Below are positions 26,301 through 29,300 of a stretch of 64,000 bases of DNA, one piece after another; the first letter of the stretch is position 1, and every line of letters begins with the position of its first letter. Origin of the DNA: Escherichia coli (GTDB lineage Bacteria > Pseudomonadota > Gammaproteobacteria > Enterobacterales > Enterobacteriaceae); the NCBI RefSeq assembly GCF_022846255.1, contig NZ_AP025682.1, one strand, 5' to 3'. The position numbers are program-made.

Positions 26301-29300
26301 GCTGCACTCGGTCGGTCTTGATGCGCTGGCGACCGCCAACGACATGAACCGTAACGTACTCTGCACCTCGAACCCTTACGAGTCGCAGCTGCATGCGGAA
26401 GCATATGAATGGGCGAAGAAAATTTCTGAACATCTGCTGCCTCGTACCCGCGCGTATGCGGAGATCTGGCTCGATCAGGAAAAAGTCGCCACTACTGATG
26501 AAGAGCCGATCCTTGGTCAGACCTACCTGCCGCGTAAGTTCAAAACCACGGTAGTGATCCCGCCGCAGAACGATATCGATCTGCACGCCAACGACATGAA
26601 CTTCGTGGCGATCGCCGAAAACGGCAAGCTGGTGGGCTTTAACCTGCTGGTGGGCGGTGGGCTTTCCATCGAACACGGCAACAAGAAAACCTACGCCCGC
26701 ACGGCGAGTGAGTTTGGCTATCTGCCGCTGGAGCATACGCTGGCGGTGGCGGAAGCCGTCGTGACAACTCAGCGTGACTGGGGTAACCGAACCGATCGTA
26801 AAAATGCCAAAACCAAATACACGCTGGAGCGCGTGGGGGTTGAGACGTTTAAAGCGGAAGTTGAACGTCGCGCGGGGATCAAATTCGAGCCGATTCGCCC
26901 GTATGAGTTTACCGGACGCGGAGATCGTATTGGCTGGGTTAAGGGCATTGATGATAACTGGCACCTGACGCTGTTTATCGAAAATGGTCGCATTCTTGAT
27001 TATCCGGGACGTCCGCTGAAAACCGGCTTGCTGGAGATCGCGAAGATCCACAAAGGTGATTTCCGCATTACGGCGAACCAGAATCTGATCATCGCCGGCG
27101 TGCCGGAAAGCGAGAAAGCGAAGATCGAGAAGATCGCCAAAGAAAGCGGGTTAATGAATGCCGTCACGCCGCAGCGTGAAAACTCAATGGCCTGCGTGTC
27201 ATTCCCGACTTGCCCGCTGGCGATGGCGGAAGCGGAGCGTTTCCTGCCGTCTTTTATCGACAACATCGATAATTTAATGGCGAAACATGGTGTCAGCGAT
27301 GAGCATATCGTGATGCGTGTAACAGGCTGCCCGAACGGTTGTGGTCGCGCGATGCTGGCGGAAGTGGGTCTGGTGGGGAAAGCGCCGGGTCGCTACAACC
27401 TGCATCTTGGCGGCAACCGCATTGGGACACGTATCCCACGGATGTATAAAGAAAACATCACCGAGCCGGAAATCCTGGCGTCGCTTGATGAACTGATAGG
27501 GCGCTGGGCGAAAGAGCGCGAAGTGGGTGAAGGCTTCGGCGACTTTACGGTGCGTGCGGGCATCATTCGCCCGGTGCTCGATCCGGCGCGCGATTTGTGG
27601 GATTAACCATCAGCCCGGTCTTGTAGGCCTGATAAGATGTGTAAGCGTTGCATCAGGCAAGGCAAACAGTGAGGAACTTATGTCCAAACTCGATCTAAAC
27701 GCCCTGAACGAACTGCCAAAGGTAGACCGGATTCTGGCGCTGGCGGAAACTAACGCCCAACTGGAAAAACTGGACGCTGAAGGCCGCGTAGCCTGGGCGC
27801 TGGATAATCTGCCCGGTGAATATGTACTTTCTTCCAGCTTTGGCATTCAGGCGGCGGTGAGTCTGCATTTGGTGAATCAGATTCGCCCGGATATTCCAGT
27901 GATCCTCACCGATACCGGCTATCTGTTCCCGGAAACCTACCGCTTTATTGACGAGTTAACGGACAAACTCAAGCTCAACCTGAAAGTGTACCGTGCTACC
28001 GAAAGCGCCGCCTGGCAGGAAGCACGCTACGGCAAACTGTGGGAGCAGGGCGTTGAAGGCATTGAAAAGTACAATGACATCAACAAAGTCGAACCGATGA
28101 ACCGGGCGCTGAAAGAACTGAATGCGCAAACCTGGTTTGCTGGCCTGCGCCGTGAACAATCCGGCAGTCGCGCCAATTTACCGGTGCTGGCAATTCAGCG
28201 TGGCGTATTTAAAGTGCTGCCGATTATCGACTGGGATAACCGAACTATTTATCAGTACCTGCAAAAACATGGCCTGAAATATCACCCATTATGGGATGAA
28301 GGATATTTATCGGTGGGCGATACCCATACAACCCGTAAATGGGAACCCGGCATGGCGGAAGAAGAAACGCGTTTCTTTGGCTTAAAAAGGGAATGTGGAT
28401 TACACGAAGGGTAAATATTGCCGGATAAATTAAACGCCTCTGTCAGAAATGATGGGGGCGTTTTTATTTTGCGAGCAGCATTCCGGCATTTAAACGAGAA
28501 CGTCGCAGGGAGAATTAACAGGTATAGAATGGCATTGGGTGCTTGAGGCTGTCTGGCGTTAAGCATTCGCGAGGTTCCAGATGGACAAAAGCCCCAGGCG
28601 ATATTTCTATCAACCTGAGGCCTACGTTCGAACCTAAGCAATTCGGATGTTAGTCTCTTCTTTGCAGGGAGGCAAGACATGCTGACAAAATATGCCCTTG
28701 TGGCAATCATCGTACTGTGTTGTACAGTACTGGGATTCACGTTGATGGTAGGCGACTCGTTGTGTGAGTTGAGTATCAGAGAACGTGGTATGGAGTTTAA
28801 GGCAGTTCTCGCTTACGAATCGAAGAAGTAGCCACCACGCGGGGTAAAACCCCGCGTACTGAATTGTGATGGTTTGGTCTCCTGCACCCTTTTTTATACT
28901 CTGTTTCTGGTGGCATTGATTTCCTGCAGGCAAGGGAGTAATCATTTCAAACCCATTAAGATGCCTTCGCCAGCTCCTTCACCAACGGTAGCATTATCCG
29001 CATAACATCACGGCAGCGACGTTCTATTCTTCCAGGAAGTGCCTTATCAATATGCTGTTGATTATCCAGTCTTACGTCATGCCAGCTATTTCCCGCAGGG
29101 AATGCGGCTGTTTTTGCGCGTTGCTGATAACCATCCTTATTGCCAAGATTCCAGTTAGTCGCTTCCACCGAAAGTACAGTAATACCGGCTTTGTCGAATA
29201 TTTCTGCGTCATTACAACACCCGGTGCCTTTCGGATAGTTTTTATTCAAACCTGGATTTGTGGTGGCGGCAATTCCATGGCTGCGGGCAATTGCCAGCGC

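Follow-up and report, generated by a model that had tools for sequence, protein, structure and literature searches.

The hokX/sokX locus downstream of cysH in Escherichia coli, a type I toxin–antitoxin system most likely of the plasmid R1 hok/sok kind

Introduction

What is the short, unlisted reading frame that follows cysH in this E. coli chromosome, and does it belong to a complete toxin–antitoxin system? An initial annotation, made from the sequence alone, had taken it for a type I toxin gene of the Hok family, accompanied by a cis-antisense Sok RNA and placed where K-12 has its cas genes. Here we follow up this proposal in the window, by which we mean the whole stretch of 64,000 nt that was analysed and to which all positions refer (Table 1). 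Its core was borne out by Pfam, NCBIfam, and Rfam matches and by the mapping of K-12 sokX, and we put at about 93% the probability that hokX/sokX is a type I toxin–antitoxin locus of the E. coli chromosome operating, most likely, by the scheme of plasmid R1 hok/sok. The locus is an ordinary and already described one, which most E. coli carry just 3′ of cysH. K-12 sokX (b4701), ‘hok-5’ of NRG857c, the CRISPR-I ‘hok sok’ (Almendros, 2014), and ‘hokG’ (PMC13017025) are all names for this same locus.

Table 1. Features of the hokX/sokX locus and its upstream border (window positions).
Feature	Position	Strand	Basis
Intrinsic terminator of cysJIH (hairpin, then T-run)	28432–28463	+	Terminator scan
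Putative hok promoter -10, TATAGAAT, read as TAGAAT at 28525–28530	28523–28530	+	Sequence; homology to R1 hok mRNA start
Predicted full-length hokX mRNA, about 360 nt	28537–28896	+	RF01794 position 1, conserved GGGTGCTTGAGGC, end of conservation
tac-like 5′ element	28537–28550	+	MFE partner tables, full-length and 3′-truncated RNA
SokX antisense RNA, 59 nt (5′ end 28639, 3′ end 28581)	28581–28639	-	Base-for-base mapping of K-12 sokX by alignment
12-codon upstream ORF, possible minimal mok equivalent	28647–28685	+	ORF comparison across alleles
sok promoter: -35 TTGCCT (28675→28670), 17-nt spacer, -10 TAACAT (28652→28647)	28647–28675	-	Sequence versus annotated sokX 5′ end
hok Shine–Dalgarno, GGGAGG	28667–28672	+	Sequence; MFE partner table places it partly inside hairpin 28648–28687
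hokX CDS, 50-aa Hok/Gef toxin, WP_000956458.1	28679–28831	+	Profile matches, homologue alignment, RefSeq annotation
TadA editing motif TACG, edited A at 28815, codon 46 Tyr→Cys	28814–28817	+	MFE loop; published RNA-seq
Stable 3′ stem-loop, 9 bp, mostly G-C, CGCGGGGTA/AAA/CCCCGCG	28837–28857	+	MFE fold
fbi-like 3′ element 28876–28889 (GGTCTCCTGCACCC), then T-run 28890–28895	28876–28895	+	MFE partner table

Results

A Hok Family Toxin Gene Downstream of cysH

The coordinates first given for the reading frame are exact, with 50 codons running from ATG to TAG on the plus strand, and the peptide does carry the Hok/Gef signature that had been noticed (SLCE-2-IR-4-E-2-A-2-AYES), C-terminal to a hydrophobic N-terminal stretch (residues about 5–24 of the 50). 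The Pfam model HOK_GEF (PF01848) matched the peptide from position 1 to 42 of 42 (38.9 bits, E = 6.3e-10), and the NCBIfam HokA model matched it with E = 2.6e-14. Because the scores lie under the curated cut-offs of the HokA equivalog NF007290 (53 bits versus 89) and of the Hok subfamily model NF007279 (39.5 versus 73), hokX is a member of the Hok family and no HokA orthologue. The same CDS is labelled ‘Hok/Gef family protein’ by RefSeq in strains of several lineages, and the accession in the window is the one found in CFT073 and many other genomes.

Alignment to hokA–E and to plasmid R1 hok/sok, which the initial annotation had named as a check, revealed homology throughout, the locus aligning end to end with hokB, hokC, hokE, and R1-type loci. 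Six residues of the peptide (C14, T16, L28, E30, E39, and A45) are invariant among HokA–E and R1 Hok; identity reaches 78% with K-12 HokE, 48% with HokA, and 33–37% with HokB, HokC, HokD, and R1 Hok, and by sequence HokE is the nearest paralogue. Given the Pfam, NCBIfam, and Rfam matches, the degree of identity to HokE, and the whole-locus alignment, a chance intergenic ORF of superficially Hok-like appearance is as good as ruled out. Two minus-strand ORFs, at 28282–28740 (152 aa) and 28634–28945 (103 aa), run antisense to the 3′ end of cysH, the leader, and hok; they are unsupported and were treated as spurious.

The hok Shine–Dalgarno sequence sits 6 nt 5′ of the ATG. Toxicity of the family has been assayed: according to a preprint (bioRxiv 2025.08.07.668861), 42 of 45 Hok homologues tested were toxic, the exact hokX peptide (id 46_982, plasmid LRP171) belongs to this panel, and the three non-toxic members bear other ids.

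Leader, mRNA Folds, and the SokX Antisense RNA

The leader at 28537–28694 matched RF01794 over model positions 1–157 of 157 with 112 bits (gathering score 59; E = 5.5e-26), on the hok sense strand as at the hokB, hokC, and hokE loci of K-12, and this was the sole Rfam hit in the entire 64-kb window. A sub-threshold match to ctRNA_p42d at 28430–28472 (24.9 bits versus a gathering score of 50) corresponds to the hairpin of the cysH terminator and to no antisense RNA. We inferred the 5′ end of the hokX mRNA from position 1 of RF01794 and from GGGTGCTTGAGGC, which is common to hokB, hokC, hokE, and R1, and the 3′ end from the point where conservation stops in cas3-bearing strains. The RNA so delimited has a minimum free energy (MFE) of -133.2 kcal/mol (z = -3.95 versus shuffles). 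A putative -10 box lies 6 nt 5′ of the presumed mRNA start, with a poor -35 (GTCGCA, 28502–28507). Both this TATAGAAT segment and the tac-like element are kept in eight reliably assembled alleles and in K-12, and both differ in the error-prone D7 assembly.

In the MFE fold of the full-length RNA, 28537–28550 and 28876–28889 form 12 predicted pairs around a 2 × 2 internal loop, so that the tac-like and fbi-like elements would close the molecule over its whole length; after removal of the 3′ end, the tac-like element is predicted to enter a local hairpin instead (28537–28568). Apart from the IS-disrupted and K-12-type alleles, all keep the fbi-like element. Relative to R1, the tac/fbi pairing shows one compensatory difference, U-A in hokX and C-G in R1 (GGGUGC/GCACCC versus GGCGC/GCGCC). 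The stable 3′ stem-loop noticed after the ORF is real, with 9 base pairs at 28837–28857, and by analogy it is presumably the point at which 3′ exonucleolytic trimming stops. An MFE pairing resembling ucb/dcb (28640–28646 with 28859–28865) was also considered as covariation; the allelic changes are non-compensatory, and we make no claim for it.

The antisense sok RNA, which could not be mapped from the sequence alone, was placed at 28639→28581 by means of the annotated K-12 ncRNA sokX (b4701, NC_000913.3 2887353–2887411). SokX is predicted to have about 12 unpaired nt at its 5′ end, followed by a hairpin and a U-rich tail (-23.3 kcal/mol, z = -3.1). Its start lies 7 nt downstream of the sok -10 box, and the sok promoter is invariant in all alleles, with a layout shared by hokE (TTGCCT/TACCAT) and R1-type loci (TTGCGC/TATCCT). 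On sequence grounds, a cis-encoded antisense RNA with its own promoter, directed against the hok leader, is predicted in this strain. Both promoters, hok and sok, went unreported in a consensus promoter scan and were placed by homology and position; the sok promoter escaped the scan because it matches 8 of 12 consensus positions, whereas the scan requires 9 of 12. The single hit of that scan, at 28682–28710 inside the CDS, is no more than chance would give (0.8 expected), and we set it aside.

Absence of a Canonical mok Frame

Upstream of hok, the initial annotation expected an overlapping mok frame together with an antisense sok RNA, and named the antisense promoter as a check. A putative promoter could be placed (TTGCCT-17-TAACAT), whereas the long mok frame is absent: no ORF of at least 20 aa overlaps the hok start in the three plus-strand frames upstream of or across it, and an in-frame extension of hok is blocked by a TGA at 28616–28618 and has no start codon. 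The mok start position (28628–28630) reads TCG in all hokX alleles examined, whereas GAGG-N7-ATG stands there in hokB, in a Klebsiella relative, and in R1-type loci. Since a 1-nt indel separates alleles, no frame is maintained upstream of 28647. As relatives vary widely in the mok frame, we read its absence from hokX as a variant within the hok/sok family and not as grounds for exclusion.

What remains upstream is a 12-codon ORF, which starts 8 nt downstream of the stretch covered by SokX and whose stop codon, TGA (28683–28685), overlaps the hok ATG (28679–28681). It is identical in all nine alleles with a hok CDS; in O157, a change of TGA to TAA keeps both the stop and Leu2 of hok. Its ATG reads, on the opposite strand, as part of the sok -10 box, a conserved Shine–Dalgarno sequence is absent, and a Photobacterium relative has no ATG at the corresponding position. 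With the ATG explained by the -10 box and missing from the Photobacterium relative, we do not accept this ORF as a proven mok. As the canonical mok start is missing, Hok would be translated either from its own strong Shine–Dalgarno sequence or by coupling to the ORF at 28647–28685. A more specific proposal is a hok/sok variant without mok, represented by hokX and hokE, in which Hok would be translated via the 12-codon ORF, SokX would act by blocking that ORF or solely through mRNA decay, and the hypervariable SokX 5′ tail/target (28621–28639) would avoid cross-reaction among chromosomal Sok RNAs; we regard this as tentative and rather improbable.

Transcription and RNA Editing

The hokX gene is transcribed in clinical isolates (PMC13017025), and its coding sequence has the pattern described for TadA editing in the hok family (PMC5630033): Cys29 is hard-coded, and Tyr46 is encoded by TAC (28814–28816) followed by G. 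The edited A lies inside a predicted 9-nt loop (28812–28820). RNA-seq of clinical UPEC isolates detected c.137A>G (p.Y46C) in WP_000956458.1 in 188 of 1270 reads (14.8%), with a span of 10–37% across clinical isolates, and the published flank of the edited site, GUUCUCGCUUACGAAUCGAAG, equals window 28805–28825 (PMC13017025).

Allelic Variation and Genomic Setting

The hokX CDS is present in ~76% of 5,426 complete E. coli genomes. Nine sites of the CDS are variable, eight of them synonymous and one non-synonymous (C15F), and among the eight reliably assembled sequences in the comparison, the window being one of them, seven encode one and the same peptide. The leader is likewise near-invariant save for the SokX tail/target segment. 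The hairpin at 28837–28857 is an insertion hot spot of IS186/IS421; an IS is found there in roughly 13% of the genomes sampled, the disrupted alleles breaking at the equivalent of window 28852, and the copy of E. coli B has been reported as IS-disrupted (PMC7232551).

K-12 does retain a sokX RNA next to cysH, as the initial annotation had it, this RNA being annotated as b4701, and the idea that the intact form of the locus is found here holds as well: K-12 keeps the leader and sokX, with homology stopping at window 28681, straight after the hok ATG. According to Almendros et al. (2014, PMC3903273), hok/sok stands beside cysH in all E. coli but cas-E2 strains, and the K-12-type (E2) cassette alone displaced the coding part of hok. 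The ‘orphan’ sokX of K-12 is the stump of a hokX/sokX locus. The statement that the gene occupies the site where cas genes sit was, however, overstated. Many strains (e.g., O157:H7 and 2017-19-1CC) have a gene for the identical peptide between cysH and cas3, and since it adjoins cas3 there, the hokX locus is a neighbour of the CRISPR-I cassette and not its substitute.

In the window, hokX is in its intact form and directly followed by iap, the cas cassette and CRISPR array being absent; a search for the I-E CRISPR repeat with up to three mismatches gave zero matches in the whole 64 kb. Such an intact hokX abutting iap, without cas genes or I-E repeats, marks a B2-like CRISPR-less arrangement. 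A hokX gene within the cysH–iap spacer has been reported for the B2 strain NRG857c (PMC7232551), and hok plus sokX in 90% of UPEC strains (PMC12736100). The terminator of cysJIH forms the upstream border of the hok/sok locus and lies outside it.

Discussion

Family membership, sokX orthology, and the predicted 5′–3′ pairing, as well as transcription, editing, and the toxicity of this very peptide, have each been demonstrated directly here or published, and to these the R1 paradigm adds, by analogy, the likely mRNA ends, processing at the 3′ end, repression by SokX, and action on the membrane. Under the R1 scheme, a weak promoter (-10 TAGAAT) would give rise to a hok mRNA of ~360 nt that is inert in translation when full-length, with its 5′ element locked to the 3′ fbi-like element and its ribosome-binding site held in the hairpin at 28648–28687. 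Slow trimming of the 3′ end to the stem-loop after the CDS would free this lock, and the 5′ end could refold so as to make both translation and antisense binding possible. SokX, whose promoter is the better of the two and overlaps the hok ribosome-binding site, would pair with the leader through its 5′ tail, leading to decay and preventing ribosome entry; upon a drop in SokX, the 50-aa Hok would enter the inner membrane and collapse it. Editing of A to I at 28815 by TadA further produces Tyr46Cys in a fraction of transcripts, in which a Cys29–Cys46 disulfide, as described for HokB, would be possible.

The loss of the mok start invites a different reading, in which hokX/sokX is hok/sok by descent and makes both mRNA and SokX but hardly ever, if at all, yields Hok peptide, leaving no toxin–antitoxin activity. 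It would account for the TCG of hokX alleles where the Klebsiella relative keeps GAGG-N7-ATG and for a leftover upstream ATG (28647) that lacks a conserved Shine–Dalgarno sequence and coincides with the sok -10 box, but hok has a strong GGGAGG of its own at ideal spacing. Loss is evidently tolerated, the CDS being gone from about one quarter of E. coli genomes and the 3′ hairpin being interrupted in the IS-bearing fraction noted above; yet the peptide is identical over distant lineages (B2, O157, and others), and the excess of synonymous over non-synonymous changes argues for selection at the protein level. The introduction of the preprint cited above (bioRxiv 2025.08.07.668861) relates that chromosomal hokA, hokB, and hokC gave no post-segregational killing (Pedersen and Gerdes, 1999), which fits such silencing; the conservation of tac/fbi, the 3′ hairpin, and the TACG editing site does not, nor does a transcript that is abundant and edited in clinical isolates (PMC13017025). 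Taken together, we consider a silenced locus unlikely.

Far less probable still is that hokX/sokX is chiefly an addiction module protecting the CRISPR-I (cas-E1) region, or the cysH–iap segment, from deletion. The idea draws on the fact that hokX immediately adjoins the cas-E1 cassette in many strains and on the association of hok/sok with all arrangements but E2 (Almendros et al., PMC3903273). However, the window and other B2-type genomes lost the cas cassette and CRISPR array and kept hok/sok, which thus did not protect them, whereas K-12-type strains lost hok and retain cas genes; adjacency was the only link found in our tests. A type I toxin–antitoxin locus working by the R1 scheme is accordingly the reading that we prefer.

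As a discovery, the locus carries little weight: hokX/sokX has a name, is held in toxin–antitoxin databases, and is annotated in thousands of RefSeq genomes, and earlier publications cover its location at the edge of the CRISPR-I cassette, the editing of its RNA, and the toxicity of its product. The translation of Hok without a canonical mok is a detail for specialists in type I toxin–antitoxin systems only.

Comparison with Known hok/sok Systems

Compared with hokX/sokX as known elsewhere, the copy in the window shares the position after cysH, the leader, and the sokX sequence, and nothing of substance differs. The closest paralogue, hokE/sokE of K-12 (b4415/b4835), has a leader architecture like that of hokX, a common sok promoter layout (TTGCCT-17-TAnCAT), and likewise no canonical mok start; IS186 lies just 3′ of its CDS, as in some hokX alleles. 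Unlike hokX, hokE is located between ybdK and entD, and an in-frame ATG at -36 extends its product to 62 aa, whereas the upstream ATG of hokX, at -32, opens the out-of-frame 12-codon ORF that stops 6 nt into hok.

A chromosomal Hok/Gef gene of Klebsiella pneumoniae (WXI98753.1, CP125156.1) has 86% peptide identity to hokX and a nearly identical leader, including the 12-codon ORF and fbi. This gene adjoins mutS and keeps GAGG-N7-ATG at -51 in frame with hok (67-aa product), which has been lost in E. coli hokX.

The hok/sok system of R1 (parB) and its IncF relatives share with hokX a toxin of 50–52 aa, an antisense Sok directed against the leader, a sok promoter overlapping the hok Shine–Dalgarno sequence, a stable 3′ hairpin, and a conserved 5′ GG(G/C)(U/C)GCUUGAGGC element that pairs with the 3′ fbi. 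In contrast to R1, hokX is chromosomal and without a long mok frame, its peptide is only 34% identical to R1 Hok, and its predicted mRNA stops ~40 nt sooner on the 3′ side, with no separate terminator hairpin after fbi.

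A hokX/sokX locus downstream of cysH

The reading frame proposed as a Hok-family toxin gene in the initial annotation proved exact in position, strand and length, and its 50-aa peptide contains the Hok/Gef motif that had been quoted. Family membership is supported by Pfam (full-model match to HOK_GEF, E=6.3e-10), by NCBIfam (HokA, E=2.6e-14, yet with a score under the equivalog cut-off) and by alignment with five K-12 Hok peptides and R1 Hok, in which HokE was nearest at 78% identity, followed by HokA (48%) and the others (33-37%). The RefSeq entry for the coding sequence is 'Hok/Gef family protein' (WP_000956458.1). 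The surrounding gene order is cysJ, cysI and cysH (+), a small ORF (+), iap (-), and cysD and cysN (+), and the window is E. coli chromosome. The 561 bases of 28400-28960 showed 100% identity with FDAARGOS_536 and SFAD3 and 98.8% with NC101.

This element is already known and characterized. Almendros et al. place hok/sok beside cysH in every E. coli apart from cas-E2 strains and name IS186 insertion hot spots there (PMC3903273), 'hok-5' in the NRG857c cysH-iap spacer is listed as homologous to hokX from E. coli B (Bustamante et al., 2020, PMC7232551), and a 2025 survey of UPEC strains found hok and sokX beside cysH in 90%, the rest having sokX alone (PMC12736100). In a 2025-26 preprint, the exact hokX peptide (46_982) was cloned in a toxicity panel in which 42 of 45 homologues were toxic, and the three exceptions carry other ids (bioRxiv 2025.08.07.668861). 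WP_000956458.1 is also transcribed in clinical UPEC isolates (RNA-seq coverage 1270), with A-to-I editing at Tyr46 of 14.8% (10-37% across isolates; PMC13017025 supplement). The published flank of the edited site is identical to window 28805-28825, and the editing fits both the TACG-in-a-loop rule (Bar-Yaacov et al., 2017) and a predicted loop at 28812-28820.

Features of the hokX/sokX locus in window coordinates
Feature	Position	Strand	Remarks
hok mRNA 5' end (inferred)	28537 (GGGTGCTTGAGGC)	+	RF01794 position 1; conserved in hokB, hokC, hokE and R1
SokX	28639 (5' end) to 28581 (3' end)	-	K-12 cysH-cas3 spacer aligned to window
sok -10, TAACAT	28652 to 28647	-	7 nt upstream of SokX start
sok -35, TTGCCT	28675 to 28670	-	17 nt beyond -10; overlaps hok Shine-Dalgarno sequence
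12-codon ORF	ATG 28647 to TGA 28685	+	overlaps hok ATG
hok Shine-Dalgarno sequence, GGGAGG	28667-28672	+	with ATG inside hairpin 28648-28687
hok ORF	28679-28831	+	50 codons
3' hairpin	28837-28857		9 bp, mostly G-C

The antisense RNA

K-12 has an annotated ncRNA, sokX (b4701), between cysH and cas3, which verifies the sokX RNA placed next to cysH in the initial annotation; that annotation also expected an antisense sok RNA and an overlapping mok frame upstream of hok. SokX could be mapped and a putative promoter assigned to it; the long mok frame is not there. In its predicted fold, SokX has an unpaired 5' tail (about 12 nt) followed by a long hairpin, and it ends U-rich. The layout of the sok promoter is shared with hokE and R1-type loci. 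The sok and hok promoters were assigned by position and homology, and neither reached the threshold of a generic promoter scan.

The sole Rfam hit in the 64-kb window was RF01794 ('sok'; 28537-28694, +), with 112 bits against a gathering score of 59. The model is oriented along the hok sense strand, as it is at K-12 hokB, hokC and hokE, where the annotated Sok RNAs lie on the opposite strand; the match therefore marks the leader and not the antisense RNA. Annotation pipelines using RF01794 give 'sok' the wrong strand and the wrong length. The family, described as a sok antitoxin, covers the mRNA leader (157 nt) as far as the start of hok; it does not describe the ~60-nt antisense RNA.

Allele variation

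The window was compared with seven other reliably assembled alleles, and K-12 and the error-prone D7 were also taken in, D7 being kept out of the substitution counts. D7 has four genes with frameshift flags (cysI, cysH, hok and cas3) inside 3.5 kb, a pattern indicative of assembly errors and not of biology. Among the reliable alleles, the peptide is constant except for one with C15F, and eight of the nine variable coding sites are synonymous. The leader is near-invariant save 28621-28639, where the 5' tail of SokX and the target of that tail lie. Within the locus, these 19 nt vary most between E. coli alleles, with differences in 7 of 22 alignment columns and a 1-nt indel among them. Being opposite strands of one DNA segment, tail and target change together, and this variation may tune specificity among several chromosomal Sok RNAs.

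Relationship to the cas genes

It had further been proposed that hok stands in for the cas genes at their K-12 site. There are no cas genes between hok and iap in the window, no copy of the type I-E CRISPR repeat was found anywhere in its 64 kb with up to three mismatches allowed, and neither of the two I-E CRISPR sites of this strain is occupied. Of 5,426 complete E. coli genomes, 4,144 (76%) cover 80% or more of the query and therefore carry the hok coding sequence. Thirty hits, sampled at even spacing, fell into five arrangement classes: full-length coverage with the cysH-hok-iap order of the window (~20%), coverage to 28896 with mostly hok followed by cas3 (~43%), coverage to 28852 with IS421/IS186 in the 3' hairpin (~13%), coverage to 28681 with a K-12-like leader and sokX alone (~20%), and coverage to 28496 with a bigger deletion (1 of 30). 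The side-by-side hok and cas3 of the ~43% class contradict the replacement proposal; the toxin gene thus coexists with cas genes, and the hok coding part was displaced by the K-12-type (E2) cassette only.

The annotated cas3 of strain 2017-19-1CC lies on the strand opposite to hok and adjoins the 3' end of hok (equivalent of 28896); that of O157:H7 is co-directional and starts ~190 bp past the hok stop. This suggests an inversion or another cassette arrangement. In HCM-22C-2, an IS421/IS186-family element lies within the 3' hairpin at the equivalent of 28852 and severs fbi, the 3' element, from the hok mRNA; in K-12, an IS186 likewise follows the coding sequences of hokC and hokE at a distance of no more than ~20 bp.

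A sucrose PTS regulon (5970-12448, -) is flanked by queE (5214-5885) and an FGGY kinase gene (12613-14091), with genes for a fructose/sucrose-type repressor, sucrose-6-phosphate hydrolase, sucrose PTS IIBC, a LamB-type porin and fructokinase. The spacer it occupies is the site of the second I-E CRISPR array of K-12 (ygcE-ygcF), and the arrangement agrees with the 'Region C' carbohydrate-gene arrangement of PMC12736100.

Translation and structure of the hok mRNA compared with related systems

The expected long mok frame is absent both upstream of and across the hok start. At the position of GAGG-N7-ATG in hokB, hokX has GAGG-N7-TCG (28628-30), and hokE likewise has no start there. The ATG is kept, in frame with hok, in a Klebsiella pneumoniae relative adjoining mutS (86% peptide identity); an IncFII R1-type variant has an in-frame upstream ATG, and in a Photobacterium plasmid relative an ORF of 24 codons overlaps hok. 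As the frame differs among these relatives, the mok frame is not conserved in the family, whereas an upstream start behind GAGG usually is; in E. coli hokX it has been lost. The 12-codon ORF is constant in every allele with the hok coding sequence, the stop being TAA in O157; its ATG is the complement of the sok -10, no conserved Shine-Dalgarno sequence precedes it, and the Photobacterium relative has ATT in place of the ATG. We regard coupling of hok translation through this ORF as an unlikely hypothesis.

The Klebsiella gene (CP125156.1; 1340-1730 of the segment compared) has its upstream ATG behind GAGG, with a predicted extended product of 67 aa. The record, 5.37 Mb long and labelled a plasmid, is evidently chromosomal and misfiled in PLSDB; the same holds for several of the 0.7-4.9-Mb E. 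coli hits from that search. For pMTY1886_IncFII (positions in the segment compared), the listed hok coding sequence is only 558-659 (33 codons); the full 52-aa frame opens at 501 (501-659), and the in-frame ATG at -57 predicts 71 aa.

The stable 3' stem-loop of the initial annotation was recovered, and conservation in cas3-bearing strains extends beyond it to 28896, just past CCTGCACCC-TTTTTT. The predicted fold of 28537-28896 (-133.2 kcal/mol, z = -3.95) includes long-range pairing of 28537-28550 with 28876-28889, and when the RNA is cut back at its 3' end to the hairpin, the 5' end is predicted to refold locally (28537-28568). In the R1 model this long-range pairing is the tac/fbi lock, by which the 5' and 3' elements close the full-length RNA; the sequences are GGCGC/GCGCC in R1 and GGGUGC/GCACCC in hokX, with one U-A for C-G exchange.
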